Shown here in pieces: positions 22,545 to 40,135 of a DNA stretch of 64,000 bases (position 1 is its first letter; each line of letters starts with the position of its first letter). Under the pieces are notes generated by a model. That model had not been told where the DNA came from. It ran no database searches and was given only the letters and a program-made list of their open reading frames with translations. This DNA comes from an uncultured Starkeya sp. (GTDB lineage Bacteria > Pseudomonadota > Alphaproteobacteria > Rhizobiales > Xanthobacteraceae): assembly GCA_964543245.1 (NCBI GenBank), contig CAZIXP010000001.1:49882-113881 (forward strand), written 5' to 3'. The translations under genes were made by a program, and so were the position numbers.

Positions 22545-22580
22545 TCCAACAACCATGATGCAGACGGACTCTCCTTCGAT

Positions 22581-22726: not shown

Positions 22727-22744
22727 TTTCAGAAATTTTTGAAA
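22727..22744. promoter_or_regulatory. Palindromic operator upstream of the GbsR-type regulator/cyd operon
   Basis: TTTCA-N8-TGAAA, 17 bp upstream of the regulator ATG. Confidence 0.55.
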
Positions 22745-22761
22745 CTTCAGGATCCGCGGGC

Positions 22762-23334: not shown

Positions 23335-25118
23335 GCGTGACCGGGGCGGGCAGCATCAGCATGCGATCGGGTTCGGGAACGCCACCGGCGGCGTCCGGCC
23401 CATCGGCCAGTGCCCGCACCGGATCGGCGTCTCTTGCCGATGAGGGTCTCTCGGACGACGGACCGAAACAGCCCGGGCGGACGCTTTTGGGGCCGACGCT
23501 TCAGGTTGCCGCCTCGCTGCTCTGGATACCGCAGGCCGCGCTCATCAGCCTGTCGGTCGGCGACATTGCCGCCGGTGGCGACATCGACGCCGTGCTCATC
23601 AATGCGGGAGGCGTTCTGGCGCTCGGCATCGTCAGGGCCGTGGTCGACGCGCTCGGCGGCCGGGTCGCCTATCGCCGGGCGCGCGCGCTCCTGTCTCATC
23701 ATCGCCGCGACGCCGTTGCGACGCTGGCCGCCCGCTCGCCGCTCGATGCCGGGCGCCCGGCATCCGGGCTTGCCGCAAGCACACTCGGCGAGCAGGCCGA
23801 GGCGATCGTTCCCTATCTTGCCCGTTTCCAGCCGGCGCGCCTGCGGGCGAGCATCGTTCCCCTTGCCATCCTTGGCTGCGTCCTCGTCTGGTCATGGGCC
23901 GCCGCTCTCGTCCTCCTCATCGCCGCGCCGCTGATCCCGATCTTCATGGCGCTTATCGGATGGCGCGCCAAAGCAGCCTCCGAGGCGCAGCTTGTCGAAT
24001 TGGGCGGCATGAATGCCTTTCTGCTCGACAGGCTGCGCGGCCTGGCGACGATCCGTTCGCTCGATGCCGTCGATCTGACCGCCAATCGGCTGAGAGCCGA
24101 CGCCGAGAGCCTGCGCACCCGCACAATGGCGGTGCTGCGCATCGCCTTTCTGTCTTCGGCCGTGCTCGAGCTCTTCGCCGCGCTCGGCGTCGCCATGGTC
24201 GCCGTCTACGTCGGCTTCCATCTTCTCGGCCAGCTTCCCTTCGGCGCATGGGCAGGCAAGCTTTCGCTGAGCGAAGGCCTGTTCATCCTGCTGCTGGCGC
24301 CCGCCTTCTTCGAGCCCTTGCGCGACCTCTCCGCCGTCTGGCATGACCGCGCCGCCGGCGAGGCCGCGCTCGAAGCCCTGCAGCGCCTCGCCCAGAAAGG
24401 CGAACGGCTCCCCGGTGCCGCTAACGGGGAGCCGGGGGACAAACCATCCTCGCTGGCGCCGCTTTCCGTGCGCGTCGACAACCTCCGTTTCCGTCATGCC
24501 GGACAGCGCGCGCCGGTCTTCGATGGTTTTGGGCTCACGGTCGCGGCGGGAGAACATGTCGCACTGCTCGGGCCCAGCGGAACGGGAAAGTCGACACTGC
24601 TAGCGCTGCTTGCCGGTCTCTCCCTTCCCGAAAGCGGGCGCATCGCCATCGCTGGAGAGACGTTGTCGGATCGCAATGCCGCACGATTGCGCCGCCGCAT
24701 TGCCTGGATCGGCCAGACCCCGCATGTCTTCGCCGGCACGCTCGCCGGCAATGTCTCCCTCGGTCGGTCCGACGTCAGCAGAGCAGCCATCCATAGTGCG
24801 CTGCAAAGCGTCGGTCTCGGAGAGGTTGCCGCCAGGAGAGGGGCCGTTCCGGTCGGCGAGAACGGGGTCGGGCTTTCGGGCGGCGAGGCTTCCCGCCTGG
24901 CGCTCGCGCGCGTGGCCGTGGCCCCGCAGACTGGGCTGATCCTCGTCGACGAGCCCACCGCCCATCTCGACACGAGGACCGCAGCGGCGATCGCCGATGC
25001 GTTGATTGCGCTTGCCCGTGACCGCACGCTGATCGTGGCCACCCATGATCCGGTGCTCGCGGCGCGCATGGACCGGATCGTGCGCCTGGCGCCTTCGCCG
25101 CTGGAGGACGCCGCATGA
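23331..25118 (+). CDS. cydD: Thiol reductant ABC exporter CydD
   Basis: RTMAVLRIAFLSSAVLELF, APAFFEPLR, Walker A GPSGTGKST, LSGGE, DEPTAHLD; start uncertain. Confidence 0.9.
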   Translation: MSVTGAGSISMRSGSGTPPAASGPSASARTGSASLADEGLSDDGPKQPGRTLLGPTLQVAASLLWIPQAALISLSVGDIAAGGDIDAVLINAGGVLALGIVRAVVDALGGRVAYRRARALLSHHRRDAVATLAARSPLDAGRPASGLAASTLGEQAEAIVPYLARFQPARLRASIVPLAILGCVLVWSWAAALVLLIAAPLIPIFMALIGWRAKAASEAQLVELGGMNAFLLDRLRGLATIRSLDAVDLTANRLRADAESLRTRTMAVLRIAFLSSAVLELFAALGVAMVAVYVGFHLLGQLPFGAWAGKLSLSEGLFILLLAPAFFEPLRDLSAVWHDRAAGEAALEALQRLAQKGERLPGAANGEPGDKPSSLAPLSVRVDNLRFRHAGQRAPVFDGFGLTVAAGEHVALLGPSGTGKSTLLALLAGLSLPESGRIAIAGETLSDRNAARLRRRIAWIGQTPHVFAGTLAGNVSLGRSDVSRAAIHSALQSVGLGEVAARRGAVPVGENGVGLSGGEASRLALARVAVAPQTGLILVDEPTAHLDTRTAAAIADALIALARDRTLIVATHDPVLAARMDRIVRLAPSPLEDAA

Positions 25119-26806
25119 TCGCTCGTGCACGCCAGTTACTTCCGGTCGCGCGGCTGTTCCTCACCGGCAACCGCCCCATGCTGCTCTCCGGACTGTTGCT
25201 TTCGGCGGCGACGGCGCTTTCCGGCGTGGCGCTCCTCGGCCTTTCCGGCTGGTTCATCACCGCGACAGCCATCGCGGGTCTGTCCGTTGCGACCGCGCTC
25301 GCCTTCGACGTGTTTGCGCCGTCCGCGGGCATCCGCTTCCTGGCGCTGGCGCGCACGGCCGCCCGCTACGGCGAGCGGTTGACCACGCATGACGCCACGC
25401 TCGGCGTTCTCGCCGAACTGCGCGAGCGCCTGTTCCGGGGATGGGCAAGAGCAGGGGTGGCGGGCGAACTCGCCAAGCGTCCCGCCCGTCTTCTCTTCCG
25501 CCTCACGCTCGACATCGACGCGCTCGACTCGCTCTATCTGCGGGTCGCCGTCCCGATCGCCGCCGCGCTCGCCGTGGCGCTGACGAGTGGTGTCGCCCTG
25601 GCGCTGGTGCATCCCGTGCTCGGCGCGGTGACCGCCATCTTTCTGGTTGTCGTCGGGACGGGCATCCCGATCGCAGCGGCGGTGGCTGCGAGGCGGCCGG
25701 CCCGGCGCAGGGCCTATGCCCTGGAGATCCTGCGCTCGCGGGTCATCGACCTCATCGCCGGCCAGACCGAATGGATCATGGCCGGGCAGCTCGCCGATCG
25801 CCAAGGCGAGCTCGGCGCCGTAGACCGCTACCTGTCGGACAGTGACGACGCACTGAACCGCATCGAAACGATGACCAGCATCGCCTTCGGCGCCGCCGGC
25901 GCGCTTCTCTTGTCGGCCGTCCTCGTGGCCATGGGGCTTCTGGCCGGACAAGGCATGTTCGCCGCGCCGGTCGCCGCCCTCGGCCTCCTCATAGCCCTGG
26001 CCGCGCTCGATCCCTTTGCGGCGCTGCGGCGCGGATCCGTCGAACTCGGCCGCACGCTGCTTGCGGTACGGCGGATCGCACCGCGTCTGGAGGCTGCGGC
26101 CCCGGCACCCGCCATCGCACCGCCGCCACCAGGTATCGCCACGTGCATTGTCGATGTCACCATCAGGCATTCCGGCGCGAGAGCCCCGATCCTCCATGCG
26201 ATCTCGCTTTCAATACGGGCTGGCGATCGTGTCGCCGTGATCGGCCCGAGCGGAGCCGGTAAGTCGACGCTGCTTGCCCTCATCGCCGGCGAGATCCGCG
26301 CCGAGACGGGGCAGGTCGCATGCAGCTCCGCTACGCTCTTCACCCAGCGGACCGAACTGTTCCAGGATTGCGTACGCGACAATCTTCGCCTTGCCGACCC
26401 GCAGGCCGACGACCGCCGTCTTTGGGGGGCGCTGGACGCCGCCGGGCTGCGCCGCGACATCGAAGCCATGTCGCACGGTCTGAACACGCGCCTCGGGGAG
26501 GCAGGATACGGCCTTTCCGGAGGACAGGCACGCCGGCTCGCACTCGCCCGTCTTCTCCTTCGTGACACCCCGCTCTGGCTGCTCGACGAGCCGACGGAAG
26601 GTCTCGATGGGGCGACGGCGCGTGACGTGCTTGCGCGCATCATGGCGCAGGCCGCAGGCCACACGATCGTCGTGGCGACGCATATCCGGCGCGAGGCCGA
26701 AAACGCCGACCGACTGGTCATCCTGAACAAGGGAACCATCACCGCCGTCATCGGGCGTGGCGAGCCCGGCTTCGTGGCCGCACTCGCCGCGCTGCGACCC
26801 GACTGA
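25115..26806 (+). CDS. cydC: Thiol reductant ABC exporter CydC
   Basis: LLGLSGWFITATA, RTAARYGERLTTHDAT, GPSGAGKST, LSGGQARRL, DEPTEGLD. Confidence 0.92.
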   Translation: MIARARQLLPVARLFLTGNRPMLLSGLLLSAATALSGVALLGLSGWFITATAIAGLSVATALAFDVFAPSAGIRFLALARTAARYGERLTTHDATLGVLAELRERLFRGWARAGVAGELAKRPARLLFRLTLDIDALDSLYLRVAVPIAAALAVALTSGVALALVHPVLGAVTAIFLVVVGTGIPIAAAVAARRPARRRAYALEILRSRVIDLIAGQTEWIMAGQLADRQGELGAVDRYLSDSDDALNRIETMTSIAFGAAGALLLSAVLVAMGLLAGQGMFAAPVAALGLLIALAALDPFAALRRGSVELGRTLLAVRRIAPRLEAAAPAPAIAPPPPGIATCIVDVTIRHSGARAPILHAISLSIRAGDRVAVIGPSGAGKSTLLALIAGEIRAETGQVACSSATLFTQRTELFQDCVRDNLRLADPQADDRRLWGALDAAGLRRDIEAMSHGLNTRLGEAGYGLSGGQARRLALARLLLRDTPLWLLDEPTEGLDGATARDVLARIMAQAAGHTIVVATHIRREAENADRLVILNKGTITAVIGRGEPGFVAALAALRPD

Positions 26807-26886
26807 CGGCGCTCAACCGCAATCAGGCGCTACCTCTGGCGTGACGCCGTAACGACAAGGAGGCCGGACGAAGCCGGACCAAGTCA

Positions 26887-28464
26887 ATGGAACTCGATAT
26901 TGTTGATCTTTCGCGGCTGCAATTCGCCATAACCGCGCTCTACCACTTCCTGTTCGTGCCGCTGACGCTCGGCCTCTCCGTGCTGCTGGCCATCATGGAG
27001 ACGGTCTATGTCATGACCGGCCGGCCGATCTGGCGACAGATGACGAAATTCTGGGGCACGTTGTTCGGCATCAACTTCGTCCTCGGCGTCGCCACCGGCA
27101 TCGTCATGGAATTCCAGTTCGGCATGAACTGGAGCTACTACAGCCACTATGTCGGGGACATCTTCGGCGCGCCGCTGGCGATCGAGGGTCTGATGGCCTT
27201 CTTCCTCGAGGCGACCTTTGTCGGTCTGTTCTTCTTCGGCTGGGACAAGCTCTCCAAGGTCGGTCATCTCGTGGCGACCTGGGCGGTGGCGCTCGGCTCC
27301 AACCTTTCGGCGCTGTGGATCCTCGTCGCCAACGGCTGGATGCAGAACCCGGTCGGCTCCGTCTTCAATCCCGAAACAATGCGCATGGAGGTTAGCGACT
27401 TCTATGCCGTGCTGCTCAACCCGGTGGCGCAGGCGAAGTTCGTCCATACGGTCTCGGCAGGCTATGTCACCGCCGCGGTGTTCGTGCTCGGCGTTTCGGC
27501 TTGGTACGTGCTGAAGGGCCGTCATGCGGAACTCGCGAAACGCTCTATGACGGTTGCCGCCTCCTTCGGCCTTGCGGCTGCCCTGTCCGTCGTCGTGCTC
27601 GGTGACGAAAGCGGTTATCTGTCGACCGAGCACCAGAAGATGAAGCTCGCGGCCATCGAGGGCATGTGGGAAACCGAACCGGCGCCCGCCGCCTTCACGC
27701 TCCTCGGCTTGCCCGATCAGCAATCCCGCGAGACCCATTACGCGGTCAAGATTCCCTGGGTCATGGGCCTGATCGGCACCCGCTCGCTCACCACCGAAAT
27801 CCCGGGCATCGACGAGCTCGTGGTCCATGCCGAAAGCCGCATCCGCCGGGGAATCACGGCCTTCGACGCGCTCCAGCAGATTCGCCAAGCCGGTGGCCCG
27901 AACGCCGTCGCTGCGGACGTTCGCGCGGCCTTCGAGGACAACGGCCAGCATCTCGGCTACGCCTTGCTGCTCAAGCGCTACGTCGACGATCCGCGCCAGG
28001 CGAGCGACGCGCAGATCGCGCAGGCGGCATGGGATACGGTGCCGCACGTGCCGTCCCTGTTCTGGTCGTTCCGCATCATGGTCGGGCTGGGCTTCTTCTT
28101 CATCGCCCTGATGGCCCTGTTCTTCTATCTCTCGGCAAGACGCAGGCTCGACCGCTATCCCCTGCTGCTGCGTCTCGCGGTCTTTTCCATCCCGCTGCCG
28201 TGGATCGCAGCCGAGCTCGGCTGGGTCGTCGCCGAGTTCGGCCGCCAGCCCTGGATCATCGAAGGGGTGCTTCCCACCGCCGCCGCGGTCTCCAATCTCG
28301 GGGCCGCGACACTGCTCGTCACCATCGCCGGCTTCGTGCTGATCTACACGGTCCTGTTCGTCATCGAGATGGCCCTGATGATCCGGGCGATCCGCAAGGG
28401 ACCCGAGCCCGACGACGAGGCCGAGGCCGAGCTCGTTTCCCCCTCCCTCGTCGCCGCGGAGTGA
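26887..28464 (+). CDS. cydA: Cytochrome bd ubiquinol oxidase subunit I
   Basis: [38 protein letters not shown] and GRQPW. Confidence 0.97.
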
Positions 28465-28469
28465 ACCTC

Positions 28470-29627
28470 ATGATCCTGCATCAATTCATCGACTACGAAA
28501 TGCTCCGCGTCGTCTGGTGGCTGCTGCTCGGCGTGCTCCTGATCGGCTTCGCCGTGATGGACGGCTTCGACCTTGGCACCGCCACGCTGCTGCCCTTCGT
28601 CGCCAGGAGCGATGTGGAGCGGCGCGTCGTCATCAACGCGGTCGGGCCGGTCTGGGAAGGCAACCAGGTCTGGCTGATCCTCGGCGGCGGCGCCATCTTC
28701 GCCGCCTGGCCGCCGCTCTATGCGGTGTCCTTCTCCGGCTTCTACCTGGCCATGTTCGCCATCCTCTTCGCGCTGATCCTGCGCCCGGTCGGCTTCAAAT
28801 ACCGTTCCAAGCGCGACAGCGCGGCCTGGCGCTCGGCCTGGGACTGGGCCCTCTTCATCGGCGGCTTCGTGCCGGCGCTCGTCATGGGCGTGGCCGTCGG
28901 CAATGTGCTGCAGGGCGTGCCGTTCCGTTTCGGCGACGATCTGCGCATCTATTACGAGGGCACGACGCTGTTCGAACTGCTCAATCCGTTCGGATTGCTG
29001 GCCGGCCTTGTCTCGGTCGCCATGCTCGTCATGCATGGGGCGGCCTGGCTCATCCTCAAAAGCGAGGGGCCCGTCGCCGAGCGCGCGCGACGCTGGGGGA
29101 GCATTGCCGCCACCGTGACGATCGTCCTGTTCGCGCTCGGCGGCCTCTGGCTCTGGCTCGGCATCGACGGCTATCGGATCACCAGCGAGGTCACCACGAC
29201 CGGTGCGTCCAACCCGCTGCGCAAAACCGTCGAGGAGGCGCCGGGCGTCTGGTTTGAGAACTATGGCGCGCATCCGTGGATGACGATCGCTCCCGCGCTC
29301 GGCTTCCTCGGCGCGGCGGGAGGCTACGTGTTCATGCGCGCGCGCCGGGAAATCCCGGCACTGCTCTCCACCTCGGTCTCCATCCTCGGCATCATCTCGA
29401 CGGTGGGATTGTCGATGTTCCCGTTCATCCTTCCGTCCTCCCTCGACCCCCGGTCGAGCCTGACGGTCTGGGATGCCTCCTCGAGCCATCTCACGCTCTT
29501 CATCATGCTGGTCGTGACCGTCGTCTTCGTGCCGATCATCGTCGCCTACACCGCGTGGGTCTATCGCGTCCTGTGGGGCAAGGTCGACGAAAAGAGCATC
29601 CGCGAAGGAAACGGTCACGCCTATTGA
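28470..29627 (+). CDS. cydB: Cytochrome bd ubiquinol oxidase subunit II
   Basis: [17 protein letters not shown] and [10 protein letters not shown]. Confidence 0.97.
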
Positions 29628-29644
29628 CGGAAAGGATAGTTGCA

Positions 29645-29791
29645 ATGTGGTATTTCGCCTGGCTTCTCGGCCTGCCGCTGGCGGCGGCGTTCGCCGTCCT
29701 CAATGCGATGTGGTACGAACTCATGGACGACGCGGCGAAGAAGCCGGCGCAGCCGCTTCACGCGACCGGACATACACACCCCGACCGGTAA
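29645..29791 (+). CDS. cydX: Cytochrome bd oxidase small subunit X
   Basis: MWYFAWLLGLPLAAAFAVLNAMWYE. Confidence 0.92.
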   Translation: MWYFAWLLGLPLAAAFAVLNAMWYELMDDAAKKPAQPLHATGHTHPDR

Positions 29792-29934
29792 GTCCTGGGA
29801 CGTCACCTTTCGGTGGCGTCTTGGCGTCCTCCAGCGGCGGCGGTCGCTTTGTCATGTCGCAGCGCCGATGGTTCATCGGCGCATGCCAAGGGCGGATGCT
29901 GTCGAGGCACCCCATGCCGCGTGGCGGCCTCGCT

Positions 29935-30846
29935 TCACCCCTGCTGGCCTTTGGCCCAGGTCTGGATGAGCCGTCCCAGGGCACGGAACTCCTCGCCGCG
30001 CATCGATTGCCTGCGCCAGCACAGGCCGATCTCCCGGGCATTGGCCTGGTCCGACAGCGGCCGCGTCACCACCGGGCTGCCTTTGAGAATGCCCGCGGAC
30101 AGCGCGCTTTCGGGAAGCAGGGTCGCTCCCATCCCCTCGGCGACCATGGCGACCAGCGTGTGTAGGCTGGTCGCCGAAAAGGTCGTCTGCATCCGTCGGG
30201 GAGCCGCCTCCAGGAACGGCAATGCATGGCTGTGAAGGCACTGATCCTTCTCCAGGAGCAGAAGCGGCTCGCCGTTGAGGTTATCCTCGCTCAAACATTG
30301 CGCATCAGCGAGCGGATGCTGAGGGCTGCAGGCGAACCAATAGGGGTCCTTGAACAGGGCCATCGTCTCGAAGCCGCCCACGTCATAGGGAAAGGCCATG
30401 AGCAGCAGATCGAGCCGGCCTGTCGCCAGCCGATCGAGCAGAGCCCCCGTCTTGTCCTCCCGCAGCACCAGCCTCAGCTCCGGATATCGCCCGCTGATGT
30501 AGGGCAGGAGCCTCGGAAGAAGAAACGGCCCGATCGTCGGGATCACGCCAAGGGCGAGCTGACCGGTCAAAGGCAGGGCTGCCCGCGCGCCCATCTCGAT
30601 GAGCGCCTCGGCCTCTTGGAGAAGATGGCGGGCCCGCTCGGCGATCTGGAGACCGGCCGGTGTGATGAAGACAGTCCGCTTCGTGCGCTCGGCCAGCGTG
30701 ACGCCGAGCACGGCTTCGAGTTCCCTGATGCCGACGCTGAGCGTCGACTGGGTCACCCTGCATACATCCGCCGCCCGTCCGAAATGGCTGTGATCCGCCA
30801 GGGCGACGAGATAGCGCAGCTGCCTCAGATTCGGGAGCGGCTTCAC
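29935..30846 (-). CDS. OxyR-like LysR regulator with only the Cys199-equivalent
   Basis: NLRQLRYLVALAD..HFGRAA, GVIPTIGPFLLP, LLLLEKDQCLHSHALPFL, TSLHTLVAMVAEG. Confidence 0.85.
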   Translation of the reverse strand: MKPLPNLRQLRYLVALADHSHFGRAADVCRVTQSTLSVGIRELEAVLGVTLAERTKRTVFITPAGLQIAERARHLLQEAEALIEMGARAALPLTGQLALGVIPTIGPFLLPRLLPYISGRYPELRLVLREDKTGALLDRLATGRLDLLLMAFPYDVGGFETMALFKDPYWFACSPQHPLADAQCLSEDNLNGEPLLLLEKDQCLHSHALPFLEAAPRRMQTTFSATSLHTLVAMVAEGMGATLLPESALSAGILKGSPVVTRPLSDQANAREIGLCWRRQSMRGEEFRALGRLIQTWAKGQQG

Positions 30847-30877
30847 CGGCAATCGTTTCCTTCGATAACTGAAGCCA

Positions 30878-30916
30878 GAATAATTCATTTCTACGAACTT
30901 ACGCAATATCGTATAT
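30878..30916 (+). promoter_or_regulatory. Putative operator between the OxyR-like gene and PDO 2
   Basis: AT-rich, contains ATAA-N7-CTAC (half OxyR-like site); near-copy at 22581-22619. Confidence 0.55.
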
Positions 30917-30951
30917 GAGGCGCAGAGCAATATTCGAAGGAGGATCATCTG

Positions 30952-31854
30952 ATGGGCCCGAAGCCAGCTTCCTATCCAGTCGATCTCTCGGTCAGTCCAG
31001 ACGTGACGCCGTTTTTCGACGAGGCGACCAACACCATCAGCTACGTCGTCAAGGACCCGACCTCCAAGGCGTGCGCCATTGTCGATTCGGTGATGGACAT
31101 CGACTACGCCGCCGGCCGGATCGCCTACGAGTCCGCCGATGAGATAATCGACTTCGTCACCAGGAATGGATTGACCGTCGAGTGGCTGATCGAGACGCAC
31201 GTCCACGCCGACCATCTTTCGGCCGCGCCCTACATCCAGGCGAAGCTCGGCGGCAAGCTGGGCATCGGCGACCGCATCACCATCGTCCAGGACACCTTCG
31301 GCAAGATCTTCAACGAAGGCACCGAGTTTCAGCGGGACGGCAGCCAGTTCGACCGGCTGTTCCAGGACGGGGACACCTACACGATCGGGACGATGAATGC
31401 GTTCGCCATGCACACGCCCGGCCACACGCCCGCATGCATGACCCATGTCGTCGGCAATGCCGCCTTCGTGGGCGACACCCTGTTCATGCCCGACAGCGGA
31501 ACGGCTCGCGCCGATTTCCCGGGTGGGGATGCACACGAACTCTATCGCTCCATCAAGAAGGTGCTCGCCCTTCCTCCTGAGATGCGCCTGTTCATGTGCC
31601 ACGACTATGGTGCCGACGGCCGGCGGGAAATCCGATGGGAAACCACGGTCGGTGAGGAGCGCGCGCACAACAAGCACGCGCGCGACGGCATCAGCGAAGA
31701 CGAGTTCGTCGCCATGCGGACGGCCCGCGACGCGACCCTCGCCATGCCCAAGCTCATCATTCCGTCGATCCAGGTGAACATGAAGGCCGGCGAACTGCCT
31801 GCGCCCGATGCCAGCGGCAAGCGCTTCCTCAAGGTTCCCATCGACGCTCTCTGA
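30952..31854 (+). CDS. MBL-fold persulfide dioxygenase (PDO 2)
   Basis: FFDEATNTISYVV, ETHVHADH, TPGHT, DTLFMPDSGTARADFPGG, CHDY. Confidence 0.9.
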   Translation: MGPKPASYPVDLSVSPDVTPFFDEATNTISYVVKDPTSKACAIVDSVMDIDYAAGRIAYESADEIIDFVTRNGLTVEWLIETHVHADHLSAAPYIQAKLGGKLGIGDRITIVQDTFGKIFNEGTEFQRDGSQFDRLFQDGDTYTIGTMNAFAMHTPGHTPACMTHVVGNAAFVGDTLFMPDSGTARADFPGGDAHELYRSIKKVLALPPEMRLFMCHDYGADGRREIRWETTVGEERAHNKHARDGISEDEFVAMRTARDATLAMPKLIIPSIQVNMKAGELPAPDASGKRFLKVPIDAL

Positions 31855-31918
31855 CTGCCGGATATCCGCAGCAGAATCACCCCGCACCCCGCTCAACCAC
31901 AACGAAAAGGACAACCCT

Positions 31919-32653
31919 ATGAGCTGCTCCGATACCAGACCCCAGCCGACGCCGACGGCCAGCGAGAGCCCGGCGCCAAGCGTCGCCTCCGCGTCGTACG
32001 CACCGACCGAGCCGGCCGGCTCCGCGGCCATGCCCCGCATCAACGAACCGGCGCCGGCCTTCAAGGCCAACACGACCCATGGCGAGCGCTCGCTTGCGGA
32101 CTACAAAGGGCGCTGGCTCGTGCTGTTCTCCCACCCGGCCGATTTCACGCCTGTGTGCACCACCGAGTTCATCGGCTTCGCCAAGGCTGCCAACGCGTTC
32201 AAGGCGCTCGACTGCGAATTGCTCGGTCTCTCCATCGACAGCATCTTCTCGCATCTAGCCTGGGTCAGGAACATCAAGGAGAAGTTCGAGGTCGATATCC
32301 CGTTCCCGATCATCGAGGATCTGTCGATGACGGTCGCCAGGGCCTACGGCATGATCCACCCGGGCGCCTCCGACACCTCCGCCGTGCGCGCGACCTTCAT
32401 CATCGATCCCAATGGCATCCTGAGGGCCATGGTCTACTACCCGATGACCAACGGCCGCAGCGTCGCGGAGATCCTCCGCCTCGTGAAAGCGCTCCGCACC
32501 AGCGATGCCCATTCCGTCGCCACCCCGGAGGCCTGGCAGCCCGGCGAGAAGGTTCTGGTCGGTGCACCGAAGACCGTCGAGGCCTGCGAGAGCCGCATGA
32601 AGGACGGCCTCGAGACGACAGACTGGTACTTCTCCATGAAGTCCGTCGCCTGA
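31919..32653 (+). CDS. Peroxiredoxin (Prx6 / 1-Cys-type) with a Pro/Ala/Ser-rich N-terminal extension
   Basis: HPADFTPVCTTEF, VRATFIIDP and YYPMTNGRS. Confidence 0.92.
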   Translation: MSCSDTRPQPTPTASESPAPSVASASYAPTEPAGSAAMPRINEPAPAFKANTTHGERSLADYKGRWLVLFSHPADFTPVCTTEFIGFAKAANAFKALDCELLGLSIDSIFSHLAWVRNIKEKFEVDIPFPIIEDLSMTVARAYGMIHPGASDTSAVRATFIIDPNGILRAMVYYPMTNGRSVAEILRLVKALRTSDAHSVATPEAWQPGEKVLVGAPKTVEACESRMKDGLETTDWYFSMKSVA

Positions 32654-32663
32654 CAATCAGCTT

Positions 32664-32690
32664 CGGGACGTTCCCCAAAGGGACGTCCCG
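32664..32690 (+). terminator. Hairpin after the peroxiredoxin gene, possible terminator
   Basis: cgggacgt-t-ccc-caaa-ggg-acgtcccg; only a weak U-tract. Confidence 0.4.
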
Positions 32691-32926
32691 ACATTGTTGT
32701 CTCCGGCGACAAGGGCGGCCTCGACGGGGCGGAAGCCCGCAAGGACGGATGCGGCCGAAGAAATGGGCCGACGCGCGAGAAGCATCGCGCCGAAGCGAGC
32801 ATCGGTCTCTCACCGGGCGAGCTCATCACGAAAAGCAACCTCGGAGGCTGAAGCGCTTGCTTGCCCCGTCAATGGCCGAACGGCGCCGATTCAATTGAGA
32901 TGTTCAACGAGCGAGTGTAGCCGCAT

Positions 32927-33364
32927 ATGTCTGTCACAACCGATCGCAATATCGTTCATATAGAGGAGAGTGGTCACGGCCCCTACGGTCAGTTCGTCAG
33001 CATCGGTCACCATGTCCTCGGCGCGGACGAGCCGCAGGCGCTTGGTGGCGAGGACACCGGCCCTGATCCCTTCGAGTTCGTCATGGCCGGTCTTGGCGCC
33101 TGCACGGCCATGACCATCCGCATGTACGCGAGCAGAAAGAACTGGCCGCTTGAAAACGTCCAGGTATCCGTCCAGCACGTGCGCGCCACGGGCGTCTCTT
33201 CAGATACCAGGCCGCACGCCATGGAACGACGCATCGTGCTCGTCGGTCCGCTCACCGACGAGCAGCGCGACGCCCTCATCAAAATAGCGCAAAAGTGCCC
33301 GGTCGGTCTCGCCCTCGAGGCCGGGATCGAGGTGCTCACGGTTGAGGCGACCGGAGTGAGTTGA
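32927..33364 (+). CDS. OsmC/YhfA family protein
   Basis: ADEP..LGGEDTGPDP, GLGACTAMT and AQKCPV. Confidence 0.9.
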   Translation: MSVTTDRNIVHIEESGHGPYGQFVSIGHHVLGADEPQALGGEDTGPDPFEFVMAGLGACTAMTIRMYASRKNWPLENVQVSVQHVRATGVSSDTRPHAMERRIVLVGPLTDEQRDALIKIAQKCPVGLALEAGIEVLTVEATGVS

Positions 33365-33594
33365 ACGGTCTCTACCAAGGCGAATTCAGGGCTCTTCTCG
33401 ACCGCGCCAACCTACCGCTCCATAGTTGCACGATCGGCGTTCGTGTCGAAGACGCCATGGGGTGGGGCAAGCAGCAGCGACGGCCCATTCAGGTCGAACA
33501 CCTTCGCCATCCCCGCCGCATCCGTGCTGACCCACTCTCAGGCAATCAAGCGTGGCCATTTTCATCTCGGTTCGGCGATGCTGGCGCAGCATGT

Positions 33595-33720
33595 AGCCGG
33601 AGAACACCCAGCCGCTGACCGCATCGGCACCACGGTAGACGACCGTGTCGACGAAGTTCTTAGTCTTGTATTTGTCGGCTGTCGGCACCGAAATTAAAAG
33701 GCATCTCGCGACCGGGGCGC
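33595..33720 (-). pseudogene. Fragment of an NTP/NDP-exchange (AAA/MFS) transporter
   Basis: DKYKTKNFVDTVVYRGADAVSGW motif only. Confidence 0.6.
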
Positions 33721-34050
33721 ACAAGCGCGTATTCTCCGACGTGCGGATAACCATGCCTATGCCTGCCCCCGATGGTGATAGGTGAGCGCCGAACTCCGCC
33801 TACAGTCGCCATCCGCCCCCGGGACCACCATAGGAACCGTTGTAGTAGATCAGATGGCGGATGCTGTCGGGATAGAGCGAGGCATGGTGGTCGAGTCACT
33901 GCGACCCCGTCGTCCAGCCACGCCATCATGCGGCCTATCCCCTCGGCATGATTGCGCTGTGTCGACGGTCGCCGGGTTTGGTAGATCTTCTCAGAAGAAG
34001 AGCTGTGATTTGGCAATGTCTCGGCAATGCGGCGCGTCATAGAGCCTCGA

Positions 34051-35013
34051 CTACCGGTCTGCGCGGGTTTGCTTGGCCAGTTCGCGTGCAAAGCTGATCA
34101 GGCGCTGCAGGCTCGGATTGTCATTTGCAGGAGACCAGACGGCGCTGAAAGGAACAATATCCGCCTCTGCGCTAAGAGGGACCAGGCTGAGGTCACGGAT
34201 GGTCACCCCCCTCCAAGCCTCGACGACCGGCGTTATTCCTTTGCCCATGGCGACCATATGCATCAAGGTCTCCTGATGCACATCGTGATACTCAACCATC
34301 GGATAGGTGCTGTAGTCACAGATTCTCCGCACGATGTAGTCACGGATTTCCGGTCCGGGACCAAAACGGGATACGATGAACACTTCATCGACCAACTGCG
34401 ACCAATCGAGCTTCTCGAGCCGGGACAATGGATGGGACCGAGGCAGGGCGATATGGACCCGCTCTCGCCAGAGCTCCACCGTATTGCACCCCTTCACCTC
34501 GCCGTTGCCCGTAAAAAATCCTACGTCGAGCTGATGGGCGCGAATGGTGCGAATATGGTCCTGACGCCCGCCATCACGAATATCGAGCCGGACTCCAGCG
34601 TGCGCAGCCTCGTATCTACATAGGAGCTCCCGCAGAAATCCTCCGGCGAGCGTCGTGATCACCCCGACCCGCAGCCTGCCGGTCTCCACACGCCCCGCAG
34701 CTTCCGCGCACTGGATGGCCTGCCAGATCTGTCGAATCGCCGGGACCGCTTGCTCAATGAACTGCCGGCCTGCTTCGGTCAGCCGAGTGCCAAACTGGCC
34801 ACGCTCGAACAGTCCGACACCTGTTCGATTCTCGAAATCTCGTATAGCTTTGCTGACACTGGACGGTTCCACACCCAGAAGATCCGCCGCGCCCCGAATG
34901 CTCGTGCTCTCTGCGGCGGCCAAGACATATCTTATTTGCCTGAAGTCAAAGTCTTTGGCCTTGCCAAAATGATCTGACGACGTCGCTTCTCGCGGATGCT
35001 TTCCTTTCGACAT
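34051..35013 (-). CDS. LysR family transcriptional regulator
   Basis: FRQIRYVLAAAESTSIRGAA..LGVEPSSVSKAIRDFE HTH; C-terminal WSPANDNPSLQRL. Confidence 0.88.
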   Translation of the reverse strand: MSKGKHPREATSSDHFGKAKDFDFRQIRYVLAAAESTSIRGAADLLGVEPSSVSKAIRDFENRTGVGLFERGQFGTRLTEAGRQFIEQAVPAIRQIWQAIQCAEAAGRVETGRLRVGVITTLAGGFLRELLCRYEAAHAGVRLDIRDGGRQDHIRTIRAHQLDVGFFTGNGEVKGCNTVELWRERVHIALPRSHPLSRLEKLDWSQLVDEVFIVSRFGPGPEIRDYIVRRICDYSTYPMVEYHDVHQETLMHMVAMGKGITPVVEAWRGVTIRDLSLVPLSAEADIVPFSAVWSPANDNPSLQRLISFARELAKQTRADR

Positions 35014-35175
35014 TCCGCCCCTTCCGGACATTTCCTACACGCGGGCGAGCTGACCTTTCGTCGTTAGAATCGGCCGCACAAGCAATGCGCCATTTGCCCT
35101 TACAGTCCTCTTCTCGGGCTGGGTGCCGCAGGTCCGGGCCGTGGCGTAGGCTGTAGTCAGAAGCTGTACCTTCTA

Positions 35176-36582
35176 CTACGAGCAGGTGATTGCTCTGTTC
35201 TCGGCGCGATCGGGATCGGCGCGGGGCGCTCGCGACAGCATGGCTTTGCTGAATTGCAGCTCCGCGCGAAGACCGCCCTCGGAACGGTTCCCGAGACTGA
35301 CATTCCCGCCGAGGCGCTTTGCCGCCAGCTCGGCAATCGCGAGCCCGAGACCGCTTCCCATCGCTGTCTTGTTGCGGCCGCGGTAGAACCTTTCGCAAAC
35401 CTTGGGCAACTCGTCTTCGGGGATTCCGGGGCCGTTGTCTTCAATGGTCACCGCGACGGCGTCGCCATCGATCCTCACTCCGCAACGGACGACGCCGTCG
35501 TTGCGGGAATGCAGCACGGCATTTTCCATGAGGTTGCGCACCGCCAGCATGAACAGCGACGCGTCGAGCTGAAGATAGATATCGTTCAGCTTGGCGTCGA
35601 TCTCGATCGGCACCGCGTCCGAGTAGTGTTGGCGGATGTCGTCGACGAGCTGGCCGACCAGCTTGCCCAGGTTGACGCGACGACCGTCGGCATCGGCTTC
35701 GCCCCGCTCGGCATTCGTCAGGTCGGTGAGCTGACGCATCAGCCGAGAGGTCCGGTCCACTCCGACCACAATCTGGCGCAGAGCGTTGCGCCGAATGTCG
35801 GGATCGTCGCTACCCAGCGCGACCTGCGCCTGGGTTTTGAGTCCCGCAACCGGCGTGCGCAGTTCATGCGCCGCGAAAGCCGTGAAGTCGCGCTCGCGCT
35901 CGCGGGCCGCATGGACGCGTCCGAACAGCCCGTTGAGCGAGCGGATGACGGGCTTGATCTCGGAGGGCGTGTCCACGTCCGGCAGCGCGCTCAGATCGGA
36001 CGCCGGACGTGTCTCCAACGCATGAGCCATCTTGTTGAGAGGCCCGAGGCCTTTCCTGACGCTCAGCCATATCAGCCCGGCCAGGATCGGCAGGATCAGC
36101 AGTGCCGGAAGGGCCAGGCCCCGGATGACATCGGCGACCAGCCGGTCGCGAACGCGCATATTGTCCCCGACGAGAACGCGCATGCCCAGATCGGCGTTGA
36201 CCACGGCATAGACGCGCCAGGTCTCTCCATCGATGAGCGTCTCCGAAAAGCCATCCTTGGCATCGGATAGGGGAGTCGCCGGCGCTGCGTCCGAACGGCC
36301 GACCAGGGTCCCGTCCAGCGCCCAGATCTGACACGAAAGCTGGCGATCGTAGGAGGCATGCATGGTTGGCTCGATGGCCGGAATCTGCGCTGCGCGCATC
36401 GGATCGATCTCCTGGCTGGTGATCAGCGAGCTCACCATGCGCGCCGCCTCGATCAGCCGGGCGTCGAGAACCCGCTCCACCTCAGCGCGGGTGCTGAGAT
36501 AGATCCAGGCGATCGCCGACATCCACACCACGCCGGTGGTGATCATCAGGATCAGGAAGAGCCGGCTCCGGATCGACGTCAC
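35176..36582 (-). CDS. Sensor histidine kinase (QseC/PmrB-like)
   Basis: Two TM segments, FAAHELRTP, NLMENA, DNGPGI and GSGLGL. Confidence 0.93.
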   Translation of the reverse strand: MTSIRSRLFLILMITTGVVWMSAIAWIYLSTRAEVERVLDARLIEAARMVSSLITSQEIDPMRAAQIPAIEPTMHASYDRQLSCQIWALDGTLVGRSDAAPATPLSDAKDGFSETLIDGETWRVYAVVNADLGMRVLVGDNMRVRDRLVADVIRGLALPALLILPILAGLIWLSVRKGLGPLNKMAHALETRPASDLSALPDVDTPSEIKPVIRSLNGLFGRVHAARERERDFTAFAAHELRTPVAGLKTQAQVALGSDDPDIRRNALRQIVVGVDRTSRLMRQLTDLTNAERGEADADGRRVNLGKLVGQLVDDIRQHYSDAVPIEIDAKLNDIYLQLDASLFMLAVRNLMENAVLHSRNDGVVRCGVRIDGDAVAVTIEDNGPGIPEDELPKVCERFYRGRNKTAMGSGLGLAIAELAAKRLGGNVSLGNRSEGGLRAELQFSKAMLSRAPRADPDRAENRAITCS

Positions 36583-37244
36583 GCGGTCGCCTCCGCCAGC
36601 TTGTAGCCGACGCCGCGCACCGTCTCGATGACGCTCGGGCCGAGCTTCTGCCTCAGATTGTGGATGTGCACTTCGATCGTGTTGCTTTCGATATCCTCTT
36701 GCCAGCCATAGAGCCGGTCCTCGAGCTGCGACTTCGACAGGATTTGGCCGGGCCGATCCATCAGCGCATGCAGGATGGAGAACTCGCGGCGCGAAAGACG
36801 AATCGCCTCACCGCTCTTTGTGACCGCCATCGTCGCGGGATCGAGGCGCAGATCGCGCCAGATGCGGCAGGCGGACGCGCCGCCGTTGCCGCGTCGCGTC
36901 AGCGCCCTCAGCCGGGCGGCTACCTCGTTCAGATCGAAGGGCTTCCCCAGATAGTCGTCCGCGCCGGCGTCGAGGCCGGCGATCCGGTCGGGCACGCTGT
37001 CCCGCGCCGTCAGAAGAAGGACCGGCGTTCCAACCTGCCGCCCTCGCAATTCGTCCAGTACGCCGAGCCCCGAGCCGTCAGGGAGCATCAGGTCGAGGAC
37101 GACCGCGTCAAAGGCCGAGATTCTTAGTGCAGCCGAGGCATCGGCGCAGGTGGAGACTGCGTCAACCGTGAAACCGGCCAGGCCCAGCCCGACCTGCAGG
37201 CCGTTCAGCAGCACCGCGTCATCTTCGACGACCAAAACTCTCAT
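36579..37244 (-). CDS. OmpR-family response regulator (QseB/PmrA-like)
   Basis: VEDD, LDLMLPDGSG, LTARD, GADDYLGKPF, SNTIEVHIHNLRQKL. Confidence 0.95.
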   Translation of the reverse strand: MRVLVVEDDAVLLNGLQVGLGLAGFTVDAVSTCADASAALRISAFDAVVLDLMLPDGSGLGVLDELRGRQVGTPVLLLTARDSVPDRIAGLDAGADDYLGKPFDLNEVAARLRALTRRGNGGASACRIWRDLRLDPATMAVTKSGEAIRLSRREFSILHALMDRPGQILSKSQLEDRLYGWQEDIESNTIEVHIHNLRQKLGPSVIETVRGVGYKLAEATA

Positions 37245-37292
37245 GACAACTTTGCTCAGCTTCCGTCAGAACAGTCGCAATCGGGTGCCGAC

Positions 37293-37309
37293 CTTAAGCC
37301 AGCCTTAAG
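37293..37309. promoter_or_regulatory. CTTAAG-N5-CTTAAG direct-repeat box (response regulator/dsbA divergent promoter)
   Basis: cttaag-ccagc-cttaag; PmrA/QseB-type box. Confidence 0.75.
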
Positions 37310-37379
37310 GTGGCAGGCGTGGATCCCGGCTCCAGGCGGTATGCCGCCTGTCCCTCTCACGATCGAAAGGAGATTCCGT

Positions 37380-38018
37380 ATGCCAGCTCTCACGCGTCGC
37401 GGCGCCATGGTCACCATGGGAGGCGCGGCTCTCGCGGTGCCTCTCATGCAACGCTCCGCCCTCGCGCAACACGCCGACGTTTCGAAGGAAATGATTCTCA
37501 ATGACCCCTCGGCCCCGGTTTCCGGAGACCCCCGCGGCGACCTGACGATCGTGGCCTTCCTCGACTACAACTGCCCCTACTGCAAGAAGTCCGCGCCCGA
37601 CCTTGCTCGCGTCGTGAAGGAAGACGGCAAGATCCGCCTCGTCTACAAGGATTGGCCGGTGATCCGGCCGACCTCGATCGATGGTGCCACCATGGCGCTC
37701 GCCGCCAAATATCAGGGCAAATACGAGGTTGCGCACCACGCCCTGATGGGCATTCCCGGGGTCGGCGTCCCAAGGGAGAAAATGCGCGAAGGTCTGGAGG
37801 CCGCGGGCATCGACATGCGCCGCCTCGACGCTGACATGACAGCCAAGGCAGCTGAAATCGACGCCATCATCAAGCGCAACATGGCGCAGGCCGATGCCAT
37901 CGGTTTCTCGGGCACGCCAGCCTACCTCATTGGGCCCTTCCAGACTTCGACCCTGGACTATCAAGGCTTCAAACTGGCTGTGGCGGACGCGCGCAAGCGG
38001 CAGGCAGAGGGACAGTGA
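37380..38018 (+). CDS. DsbA family thiol:disulfide oxidoreductase, Tat-like signal
   Basis: LTRR signal, FLDYNCPYCK, KDWPV and GTPA. Confidence 0.88.
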   Translation: MPALTRRGAMVTMGGAALAVPLMQRSALAQHADVSKEMILNDPSAPVSGDPRGDLTIVAFLDYNCPYCKKSAPDLARVVKEDGKIRLVYKDWPVIRPTSIDGATMALAAKYQGKYEVAHHALMGIPGVGVPREKMREGLEAAGIDMRRLDADMTAKAAEIDAIIKRNMAQADAIGFSGTPAYLIGPFQTSTLDYQGFKLAVADARKRQAEGQ

Positions 38019-38031
38019 GACGAACACGTGC

Positions 38032-38409
38032 TCACCACCCCCGCTCGCGATGTTTGCTGTCGATCGTGCTGCCTTTGATCTTGCCGATCGCGACGGTCAG
38101 CGGGCACGAGCCATAGCCGTCACAGGCCTTCGGAAACGACTTGCCATCGCAGGCGGACAGGAGGTTGGCCACCACGGAAGACTGAGGCCGCACGGCTGCA
38201 GCCGTCTGGGCATTTGCCGTCGAGACCGCATCCCTGCCCGGCTGGTACGAATGCGTCTCCGAGGGCTCCGCGACGGCGATGTCGAGATCACGCCTCGGTC
38301 GCTTGAACTCTGCCGCAACGGCTATACCGGCGGCTCCTCCACCGACGATGATGATGTGGTGCTTGAGCTGCAGCGCCTTCGGCTCCTGCGGATGCACGGC
38401 AGCTTCCAT
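38032..38409 (-). pseudogene. sqr: Internally deleted type II sqr remnant
   Basis: IIIVGGGAAGIAVAA...HSYQPG joined near 38235 directly to DAVSTANAQTAAAVR...DGYGSCPLTV; the central part, including KCAGAP, is missing. Confidence 0.8.
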
Positions 38410-38446
38410 TGAATTTTCCCATTTTCAGATCGTTACTTCTGATTTT

Positions 38447-38461
38447 GTGTAATTGTGTAAT
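38447..38461. promoter_or_regulatory. GTGTAA(T/C)TGTGTAAT motif shared with 55991-56005
   Basis: 14 of 15 identical to the reverse complement of 55991-56005; 30 bp upstream of the blh-like start. Confidence 0.55.
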
Positions 38462-38491
38462 CCATGTCGACAATAGTCAAGCAGGCATCCC

Positions 38492-39150
38492 ATGGAGCTC
38501 ATTCCGGTCACAGAGAAGTTTTCCGTCGCGGGGCAACTTCAGCCCGAAGATTTCGCTAAGTTGCGTCGCCTCGGTTTCAGGAGCGTCATCAACAATCGTC
38601 CCGACGGCGAGGACCCGTCACAGCCGGGGACCAAGGCGGAAGAAGCGGCGGCCAGGGCGGCCGGTCTCGACTACGTGTTCATCCCCGTCACCAGCACCTC
38701 GATGACGGCGGACGATGCTCGCCGTTTCGCCGAAGCCATCGTCGCGTCGGACGGCCCCGTCCTGGCGCATTGCCATTCCGGCGCGCGTTCCTTCTACATG
38801 TGGGTGCTGGCCGGCGACGCGGACGTTCCGGGATTAAAGAATGACAAGTTCGTCGCCACGGCGAGCGGGACCGCACCGGACCACGCCCAGTTCCGGATCG
38901 CTGTGAGTCGAGGTCCAGCCAAACCAACGATGTAGGGTTTTTTCGATCCTCGCACTTGAGGCCGTCCGGCGCGTCGCCGGCGATCCGGCGATCAAATCAT
39001 GCGCCATCATCGATCCAGTCCTCGCCTGCGCCGAGAAGCCCGGAGCTGCCAGGACCGAACACGCCGACGGGATCCTCGCCAATTCGTCGAGCAGGTCCTG
39101 ATGGTCGAATGTATTTTCGACACCCAACCCCGCACGGCGTCCACCTGCGG
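38492..39150 (+). pseudogene. blh: Degraded Blh-like DUF442-PDO fusion gene
   Basis: Intact DUF442 domain (NNRPDGED, AHCHSGARS), then KPTM*GFFDPRT*, frameshifted SCAIIDPV and ECIFDTQP traces of the PDO N-terminus, then truncation. Confidence 0.75.
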
Positions 39151-39164
39151 AGGCCGCCGTCTCT

Positions 39165-39181
39165 CTTAATGCTGTCTTAAG
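39165..39181. promoter_or_regulatory. CTTAA(T/G)-N5-CTTAAG box upstream of dsbG
   Basis: cttaat-gctgt-cttaag. Confidence 0.7.
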
Positions 39182-39237
39182 CTGGCAGGGAGAGGACGCC
39201 AATGTTCTGAGTTTTGCACGCGACGGTCTCAATGGGC

Positions 39238-40029
39238 ATGATCGAATTGAAGAAGCTTCTGCTCTCTGCCGCTTTCGCAGCGAGCCTCGCAGGCTGCAAT
39301 GACGACAGCGGCACGGCCTCGGCAGATGCTGGCCGTGAGGGGGAGGCGGTCTTGCAGGCTCTCGAGGAACGGGGCCTGACCGTCCACGGTCCTCTCGATG
39401 TCCCGGGAGGATTGAGCGCATTCGCCGCGAGCTCGGGCACGCAGCCGGTGGCCATCTATGTCATGCCGGATTCCAACTACGCGCTGATCGGAACGCTGAT
39501 CGATGCGCACGGCAACTCCGTCGCCGACGCCGAGTTAAATCGGGTGGCGAGCGAACCAATCGAGCGCGAAGCCTGGGCAGCGCTCGAGGCCGCGGCCTGG
39601 GTTCAGGACGGAAACCCCAATGCGGAGCGCATCGTCTATGTATTCACCGATGCGAACTGCCCGTACTGTAACCAGCTATGGCGCTCGGCGCGTCCATGGG
39701 TGGAGGCCGGCAAGATCCAGCTACGTCATATCATGGTCGGCGTGATCCGCGCCGATTCTGCCGGGAAGGCGGCCGCGATTCTGGAAGCATCCGATCAGCA
39801 GGCCGCGCTCACTCAGAATGAACTGAACCATGCCAGCGGCGGCATCGCCCCTCTTGCGACCATATCCGCCGACACCAACGCCAAACTCAACAGCAATGTC
39901 GAGTTGATGAGGCGGCTGGGCTTCAGCGGCACGCCGGGGCTCGTTTCCAGAGGCAGCGACGGTTCCCTCAACGTGCAGGCCGGCGCCCCCCGGGGAGCCG
40001 CCCTCGAGATCGTGTTCGGGCCGCTTTAG
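39238..40029 (+). CDS. dsbG: Thiol:disulfide interchange protein DsbG (lipoprotein signal)
   Basis: LAGC lipobox, VYVFTDANCPYC, PWVEAGKIQLRHIMVGVI, GTP; start uncertain. Confidence 0.9.
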   Translation: MIELKKLLLSAAFAASLAGCNDDSGTASADAGREGEAVLQALEERGLTVHGPLDVPGGLSAFAASSGTQPVAIYVMPDSNYALIGTLIDAHGNSVADAELNRVASEPIEREAWAALEAAAWVQDGNPNAERIVYVFTDANCPYCNQLWRSARPWVEAGKIQLRHIMVGVIRADSAGKAAAILEASDQQAALTQNELNHASGGIAPLATISADTNAKLNSNVELMRRLGFSGTPGLVSRGSDGSLNVQAGAPRGAALEIVFGPL

Positions 40030-40074
40030 GCCGTCTCGGTCGCGGGCGTGCGGCGTCAGCAGAGCCGCGCACCT

Positions 40075-40091
40075 CTTAAGCCTGCCTTAAG
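40075..40091. promoter_or_regulatory. CTTAAG-N5-CTTAAG box upstream of dsbD
   Basis: cttaag-cctgc-cttaag. Confidence 0.75.
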
Positions 40092-40135
40092 CTGCCGATC
40101 AGACCTCTCCCGCCCGTGTCACATGAAGCGGGAGC

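Follow-up and report, generated by a model that had tools for sequence, protein, structure and literature searches.

Positions 29,935 to 33,364 of the window, by which we mean the whole 64-kb stretch of contig CAZIXP010000001.1 from an uncultured Starkeya sp., encode an OxyR-like LysR-type regulator that has kept the equivalent of Escherichia coli OxyR Cys199 and lost that of Cys208, and that is divergent from genes for a persulfide dioxygenase (PDO), a peroxiredoxin of the Prx6 type and an OsmC-family protein. The regulator belongs to a widespread clade of Cys208-less OxyR relatives with a specific genomic link to sulfur genes, and the most likely interpretation of these sequences is that of a one-cysteine redox switch for a combined sulfide/peroxide cassette, which would be activated by persulfidation of Cys203, the Cys199 equivalent. 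It has been debated for two decades whether OxyR needs the Cys199-Cys208 disulfide or a modified Cys199 alone, and a widespread natural clade with Cys199 kept and Cys208 lost provides a ready test case for the OxyR mechanism.

An OxyR-like Regulator without Cys208

The regulator gene and the two codons that set it apart are as follows.

29935..30846, minus strand: OxyR-like LysR-type regulator, 303 aa, GTG start, loop C-L-H-S-H-A-L-P-F-L
30238..30240, minus strand: codon of Cys203 (E. coli Cys199; the cysteine within EKDQCLH), placed by alignment to E. coli OxyR
30211..30213, minus strand: codon of Leu212, at the E. coli Cys208 position, placed by the same alignment

Residue numbers are counted from GTG 30846, the likeliest start. 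An ATG at 30888 was considered and rejected, because homologues begin at the position of GTG 30846 (M-x-P-L-P-N-L) and because a start at 30888 would put a conserved operator inside the coding sequence. Pfam assigns the protein an N-terminal HTH_1 domain (PF00126, E 5e-18) and a LysR_substrate domain (PF03466, E 4e-45), making it LysR-type. The top NCBIfam model is OxyR (NF008361, E 8e-69), with a score of 232 bits that lies below the 329-bit equivalog cutoff, so that the protein falls short of OxyR by the whole-protein measure. Comparison with E. coli K-12 OxyR (L001:991-1905; MAFFT, BLASTP) gives 41% identity over 296 residues, and the closest solved structures (7l4s, 4x6g, 6g1b, Vibrio OxyR2 and 1i6a) are all OxyRs. 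An AlphaFold2 model based on 95 homologues (mean predicted local distance difference test score, pLDDT, 87.5) superposes best on the full-length OxyRs of Pseudomonas aeruginosa and Corynebacterium glutamicum, the top folds in the Protein Data Bank (PDB) being 4x6g and 6g4r; the sensing loop of this model is of low confidence (pLDDT about 52-57).

The decisive segment of the regulator, LEKDQCLHSHALPFL, aligns opposite LEDGHC199LRDQAMGFC208 of E. coli OxyR. The first-pass annotation, made from the DNA letters alone, had read this region as Cys199 kept, Cys208 replaced by Leu and the canonical disulfide thereby impossible, and the alignment agrees: Cys203 and Leu212 occupy the two positions, and a protein of this sequence cannot use the Cys199-Cys208 disulfide switch. 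Its description as a one-cysteine OxyR proved loose, since five cysteines are present (29, 173, 184, 203 and 276), and is apt in that Cys203 is the sole cysteine invariant in the clade. The pocket retains the equivalents of Thr100, Thr129 and Arg266, with Gln in place of His198. No canonical OxyR gene was found within the 64-kb window.

A Clade Defined by Loss of Cys208

The top 120 database homologues include 93 that have no Cys208 and share the near-invariant loop C-L-H-S-H-A-L-P-x-[L/F]; two-Cys OxyRs (loop C-L-R-x-H-A-L-x-x-C) first appear at about 54% identity. Pooling homologues with genomic loci gave 150 sequences without Cys208, and every one of them (150/150) keeps the Cys199 equivalent. 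Leu, Phe, Met, Ile or Tyr takes the Cys208 position, His or Gln stands in for Arg201 in 149 of the 150 (His in the window regulator), and more clade-specific substitutions are found at E. coli positions 165, 206, 229 and 233. Since the same substitution runs throughout a clade of about 150 sequences, chance or error does not account for the loss. In neighbor-joining trees a single pure clade takes in 124 of 151 C208-less sequences, and about 57% of 30 bootstraps unite all 150-151; that Cys208 was lost once is likely from these trees, though not proven. In the literature we found neither a described Cys208-less OxyR clade nor an OxyR-PDO pairing, beyond the persulfidation of canonical OxyR and the OxyR of Deinococcus radiodurans (DrOxyR).

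The first-pass annotation had allowed that another cysteine might act as the resolving residue, and a search returned none that is invariant in the clade. The best candidate, Cys173 (E. coli position 169), is present in 89 of the 120 homologues and was rejected because it is no less common in two-Cys OxyRs, 93% of which have its equivalent versus 69% of the clade (31% lacking it).

Two genera hold a second OxyR-like gene. Pleomorphomonas loci L012, L014, L018 and L023 (about 10030-12170) contain a further Cys208-less paralogue (loop CLHRHALPVF, 53% identical), which sits 1-2.3 kb downstream of the first, past a gene for a SLAC1/TehA-type channel. The corresponding gene of Dokdonella (L027), about 3 kb downstream, is OxyR-like and of the two-Cys kind (39% identical), with a cysteine at both positions of its loop CLGEQATAFC.

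Sulfur Genes as Neighbors of the Clade

A scan of one genome per species identified 71 loci with a clade-motif regulator, in genera that include Rhodopseudomonas, Rhodoplanes, Xanthobacter, Pleomorphomonas, Rhizobium, Roseibium, Celeribacter, Pseudoxanthomonas, Thermomonas and Stenotrophomonas. The genes accompanying these regulators are listed below.

61 of 71 loci: divergent peroxiredoxin of any type
56 of 71 loci: Prx6-type orthologue, 62-100% identical to that of the window
39 of 71 loci: PDO in the divergent unit
27 of 71 loci: TauE sulfite exporter
13 of 71 loci: cydA (cytochrome bd subunit I), with cydB detected in 10
10 of 71 loci: flavoprotein resembling sulfide:quinone oxidoreductase (SQR), with a twin-arginine translocation signal
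8 of 71 loci: DUF442 (the sulfurtransferase domain of Blh)
8 of 71 loci: SLAC1/TehA-type channel

The PDO of these loci stands either before the peroxiredoxin or after it, as PDO-Prx or Prx-PDO'. Canonical two-Cys OxyR loci from metagenomes (80, of which 48 had at least 1.5 kb of upstream sequence) served as control. PDO, TauE, DUF442 and Prx6-type genes were found at none of these 48 loci, nine of which have a distant peroxiredoxin (28-40% identical to that of the window). Clade and canonical loci differ by Fisher tests with p of about 2e-12 (PDO) and about 5e-8 (TauE), values that ignore shared ancestry and compare locus sets drawn from different collections. The sulfur-gene link is real and specific to the clade. 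The phylogeny and neighborhood check that the first-pass annotation had proposed has thus yielded both a Cys208-less OxyR clade and its association with PDO (39/71 versus 0/48 for canonical loci). In Roseibium, cydA is accompanied by an Rrf2 regulator and an SQR-like flavoprotein.

A Conserved Operator in the Divergent Intergenic Region

30852..30886, minus strand: operator-like site GAAT-N16-ATCG-N7-CGAT, directly upstream of the regulator start codon, within the 105 nt between the divergent genes

Aligned intergenic regions of alpha- and gammaproteobacterial loci share GAAACGAAT(A/T)A, some 12 nt, and then TGATCG-N7-CGAT, a short way upstream of the regulator start. ATCG-N7-CGAT is found upstream of the regulator in 39 of the 71 loci, compared with 0.24 expected after shuffling. 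The half-sites are spaced about 11 bp apart, as for an OxyR tetramer, with an altered core: that of the canonical OxyR operator is ATAG-N7-CTAT. The 64-kb window holds no second copy of the site, and so no extension of the regulon, for instance to cydAB, is indicated. The operator and the gene order of the clade loci recur in alpha- and gammaproteobacteria as well as on a mobile element, and such conservation of the operator supports a regulator that would be functional and act locally. A sigma-70 promoter scan of 29700-33700 and an Rfam scan of 29000-35500 returned no match. Three orphan clade members (L004, L006 and L008), 63% identical to the window regulator, are without peroxiredoxin and without the ATCG-N7-CGAT operator; L004 has a sigma-54 two-component system and a CoA-transferase as neighbors.

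The Divergent Genes

30952..31854, plus strand: PDO, long bacterial form without DUF442; Pfam Lactamase_B PF00753; HVHADH metal motif
31919..32653, plus strand: Prx6-type peroxiredoxin, 244 aa; Pfam AhpC-TSA and 1-cysPrx_C; NCBIfam PRK13189 at 288 bits, above cutoff
31919-32026, plus strand: N-terminal arm of the peroxiredoxin, invariant Met-Ser-Cys followed by an Ala/Pro/Val/Thr-rich linker (20-40 residues)
32663..32691, plus strand: hairpin, 12-bp and GC-rich, immediately past the stop codon of the peroxiredoxin; weak T tail
32927..33364, plus strand: OsmC-family protein with Cys59 and Cys124, the cysteine pair of OsmC/Ohr; Pfam OsmC PF02566, E 5e-16

The first gene matches PDB chains 4ysk/4ysl (E 1e-103), 9g8t (E 5e-119) and ETHE1 4chl (E 1e-17), as well as the dioxygenase half of NCBIfam Blh (profile positions 140-423, E 1e-116). 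Chain 4ysk, named only 'Beta-lactamase domain protein' in the search output, we take to be the PDO of Myxococcus xanthus. By its metallo-beta-lactamase fold, its HxHxDH motif and its close homology to characterised PDOs, 30952-31854 is on sequence grounds a PDO, and the divergent unit opens with this enzyme just as the first-pass annotation had it.

The peroxiredoxin start was moved from 32027 to 31919 (MSCSDT...). Its peroxidatic Cys lies within FSHPADFTPVCTTE, the PVCTTE motif is present, and this Cys is the only invariant cysteine of the peroxiredoxin core, in which no resolving Cys is conserved. Eight residues ahead of it stands a His, found in FSHPADFTPVCTTE of the window and in 51 of 56 orthologues, that we take by its position to be the equivalent of human PrxVI His39, itself eight residues ahead of the peroxidatic cysteine of that enzyme. 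The gene has the characteristics of a Prx6-type 1-Cys enzyme and differs by a conserved extra Cys at residue 3. This residue is part of the Met-Ser-Cys arm, which occurs in the window and at 27 other loci (peroxiredoxin 5' ends of L005-L036, L052 and L065), is present in 26 of the 28 loci with PDO, TauE or DUF442, and is missing in 23 of the 27 loci without them. It may act as a swinging arm whose cysteine resolves, or carries, sulfane sulfur. Lang et al. 2025 (PMC12697902) found that sulfenates of Prx6-type enzymes are reduced by HS- at >1e8 M-1 s-1, only when His39 is there, to yield a protein persulfide that thioredoxin, glutaredoxin and glutathione leave unreduced, and then H2S2.

Between the peroxiredoxin and OsmC is a gap of 273 nt, in which the hairpin is a possible terminator or attenuator ahead of OsmC. 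OsmC downstream of the peroxiredoxin in the divergent unit is found only in the window and in the near-identical loci L002 and L003. This confinement to the nearest relatives, together with the hairpin and the gap, makes OsmC probably a late, lineage-specific addition, which is possibly on a separate transcript and perhaps has its own promoter. Thus the gene identities of the PDO-Prx-OsmC unit described in the first-pass annotation stand, and the inclusion of OsmC in a common unit is in doubt. Short contigs from RNA libraries span the PDO stop and the PDO-Prx spacer, with DNA carry-over a possible source. We found no isolate transcriptome with the regulator locus, the sequence being held only by metagenome and metatranscriptome contigs.

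Proposed Mechanism and Alternatives

We propose that the OxyR-derived protein would act locally to control the divergent PDO-peroxiredoxin unit, that it would bind GAAT-N16-ATCG-N7-CGAT between the two divergent genes, and that it would switch through modification of its single invariant Cys203. The form of Cys203 relevant in the cell would most likely be the persulfide (Cys-SSH), which polysulfide or glutathione persulfide would form directly, or which would arise by capture of H2S on a sulfenate made by peroxide; through the latter route the regulator may therefore respond to H2O2 too. The Prx6-type peroxiredoxin would consume peroxide and make persulfide when H2S is its reductant, the PDO would oxidise glutathione persulfide to sulfite and, in relatives, TauE would export the sulfite. 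Such a cassette would suit cells facing sulfide together with oxygen or peroxide. Persulfidation of Cys199, invoked for E. coli OxyR by the first-pass annotation, is borne out by published work on that protein (PMC6831875) and has been reported for P. aeruginosa OxyR as well (PMC13295329), with altered DNA binding or promoter activity. As to whether the regulator responds to reactive sulfur, be it with or without a response to peroxide, we find the case evenly balanced. The first-pass proposal of a neofunctionalised OxyR responding to persulfides, possibly as a dedicated sulfane-sulfur sensor, is strengthened by the clade-specific linkage to persulfide genes and weakened by the prevalence of peroxiredoxin and the preserved H2O2 pocket.

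Several observations indeed weigh against a sulfur response. The commonest partner of the clade is the peroxiredoxin (61/71) rather than PDO, and at least 15 loci combine a peroxiredoxin with no sulfur gene nearby. Thr100, Thr129 and Arg266 show little or no variation, and His198 is found in about 80% of the clade; these four residues we take, from OxyR structures, to form the H2O2-activating pocket, and with the first three conserved a fast reaction with H2O2 is to be expected of clade regulators. Known dedicated persulfide sensors bridge two cysteines. The C208S variant of E. coli OxyR lost its response to polysulfide (PMC6831875), and E. coli substitutions at 201 and at 208, both of which are replaced here, render OxyR constitutive (PMC7038661). 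Finally, the window already encodes a persulfide sensor of the SqrR/BigR type beside DUF442 and its own PDO, from which we argue that the OxyR-like system would respond to another signal or to a combined one. An earlier report does, however, describe a bacterium with two independent persulfide systems (PMC7315123).

The gene counts and the pocket would also suit a sensor of peroxide only, in which Cys203, oxidised by H2O2 or organic peroxide to a sulfenate or joined to a small thiol in a mixed disulfide, thereby turns on the peroxiredoxin (and OsmC), the sulfur genes being co-regulated merely since sulfide oxidation and oxidative stress coincide. A natural OxyR with a single sensing Cys acts via its sulfenate in Deinococcus (PMC2225504), the window has in OsmC another gene of the peroxidase type, and regulatory domains of the Vibrio vulnificus OxyR2 type are structurally close. 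We regard this explanation as possible, though short of probable: PDO, TauE and DUF442 are not enriched at canonical OxyR loci, the arm-bearing peroxiredoxin tracks the sulfur genes (26/28 versus 4/27), Prx6-type enzymes are poorly reduced by common thiols and very rapidly by HS-, and a peroxide-only sensor offers no reason for losing the resolving cysteine. Improbable in our view is a LysR-type activator or repressor devoid of a thiol switch, either constitutive or controlled by a small ligand such as sulfite or thiosulfate, in which the cysteine would be structural. The clade-wide replacement of positions 201 and 208, where E. coli substitutions are constitutive (PMC7038661), and the extra changes at 165, 206, 229 and 233 are in keeping with it, but the Cys199 equivalent is so strictly kept, in all C208-less sequences examined and along with its activating pocket residues, that a non-chemical role is hard to defend. 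A functionless OxyR copy, orphaned or in decay, as the lack of peroxiredoxin and operator at L004, L006 and L008 might suggest, is very improbable given an intact reading frame, a highly conserved sensing loop, and an operator and gene order shared by alpha- and gammaproteobacteria and a mobile element.

Returning to the persulfide switch, the linkage to PDO, TauE and DUF442 suggests that the OxyR scaffold was recruited to reactive-sulfur homeostasis. The constant pairing with a Prx6-type peroxiredoxin lends genomic support to H2S as the missing Prx6 reductant, a finding made in vitro, and the clade offers a bacterial system in which Prx6-H2S chemistry could be probed genetically. A more far-reaching scheme, which we consider unlikely, would join a hitherto unrecognised, SQR-independent route of sulfide oxidation to the Cys208-less OxyR as the first primary reactive-sulfur sensor of the OxyR family and of the LysR type. 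The Prx6-type peroxiredoxin would then oxidise H2S to persulfide using H2O2, the N-terminal swinging-arm cysteine would resolve or carry the sulfur, PDO would convert it to sulfite for export by TauE, and the single cysteine of the regulator would read the resulting persulfide.

Comparison with Known Systems

With the canonical two-Cys OxyRs of E. coli, P. aeruginosa and C. glutamicum the regulator shares LysR architecture, fold, the Cys199, Thr100, Thr129 and Arg266 equivalents, a divergent promoter layout, operator repeats about 11 bp apart and a peroxidase gene as target. It differs from them by the absence of Cys208, the change of Arg201 to His, a score under the NCBIfam cutoff (232 versus 329 bits), an ATCG-N7-CGAT instead of an ATAG-N7-CTAT operator core, and PDO, Prx6-type peroxiredoxin and TauE neighbors (0/48 canonical loci). 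We thus describe it as OxyR-like in architecture and probably in Cys199 chemistry, and as outside canonical OxyR by Cys208 and by curated score.

DrOxyR (DR0615) resembles the regulator in having no intramolecular disulfide and one signalling cysteine; it keeps Cys210, and its authors put the missing cysteine back by T201C (PMC2225504). Judged by the residue numbers of that paper alone, the two appear to be opposites, the Cys208 equivalent being kept in DrOxyR and the Cys199 equivalent here. DrOxyR, moreover, is a global H2O2 regulator (katE, dps, mntH), whereas the present regulator is proposed to be local to the PDO cassette. The persulfidated canonical OxyRs (Hou et al. 2019; P. aeruginosa study 2026) carry their -SSH on Cys199, the equivalent of the site proposed here, and show altered promoter activity in what was termed a 'single-Cys activated state' (PMC6831875, PMC13295329). 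In contrast to the regulator they are global H2O2 regulators retaining Cys208, which is required in vivo in E. coli, and a review of 2026 gives OxyR no more than the role of a secondary sensor of sulfur (PMC13467558).

The regulatory domain of Vibrio vulnificus OxyR2 (5x0v, 5b70) is close to that of the regulator in structure and sequence. OxyR2 is a second, specialised OxyR beside a divergent peroxiredoxin gene, and we know of no link between it and sulfur-oxidation genes. Unlike the regulator it keeps both cysteines, one of them apparent from the PDB entry 'OxyR2 regulatory domain C206S mutant'. The dedicated persulfide sensors SqrR/BigR, CstR and FisR control PDO, DUF442 (Blh) and TauE-type genes. 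They belong to the unrelated ArsR, CsoR and sigma-54 activator families, respectively, and their two cysteines form polysulfide bridges; the LysR-type regulator has neither the ArsR fold nor the Cys pair of SqrR/BigR. In its enzymes the gammaproteobacterial cassette (PDO-Prx-DUF442-TauE) is presumably similar to the BigR operon.

Mobility and Provenance

In L073 (GCA_049425845.1, labelled P. aeruginosa), at 4021-7969, regulator, PDO, Prx, DUF442 and TauE lie between TraG_N and TraI_2 and adjoin copper and metal-resistance genes. These conjugative-transfer flanks suggest that the cassette is cargo of an integrative conjugative element and spreads horizontally as a unit, and in this way it may spread tolerance to sulfide/peroxide co-stress. 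A PLSDB search at megablast sensitivity did not find the cassette, cydAB alone being matched. Window positions 21923-38850 are 97-98% identical, over 12-17 kb, to L002 and L003, which are labelled Halodurantibacterium flavum and Chelatococcus caeni. For such near-identity under a Rhodobacterales (L002) and a Hyphomicrobiales (L003) label there are two explanations, a recent horizontal transfer and an assembly that is contaminated or wrongly labelled. DNA of the window is found in eight metagenome runs (word share 0.95-1.00), from wastewater and sludge metagenomes.

Other Sulfur and Thiol Genes in the Window

Genes with thiol and sulfide functions are numerous in the window. A second, classical persulfide system occupies 3779-11864.

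3779-4165: SqrR/BigR-like ArsR-family regulator, nearest solved relatives 6o8k-6o8o and BigR (3pqj)
4376-4909: DUF442
4958-5839: second PDO, 52% identical to the first
5948-7063: YeeE-like/DUF6691 protein
7002-8816: SulP
near 9074-9298 and 10791-11861: parts of an SQR-like gene, which an IS110-family transposase appears to interrupt
9553-10716, minus strand: the IS110-family transposase, inside the SQR-like gene

In the alignment with chain 6o8k, the ArsR-family regulator matches each of the two cysteines of that chain with one of its own (LC and FC motifs). We take 6o8k-6o8o to be Rhodobacter SqrR, and both aligned cysteines to be SqrR-type sensing cysteines.

Three further groups of genes lie closer to the OxyR-like regulator.

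22959-29791: cydDC and cydABX, next to the regulator and convergent with it
35176-37244: histidine kinase and response regulator pair, upstream of the thiol-redox cluster
37341-42795: periplasmic thiol-redox cluster of DsbA-like, DUF442 (38492-38935), DsbG, DsbD and TlpA-like proteins

Cytochrome bd, encoded by the first of these groups, is a sulfide-insensitive oxidase.

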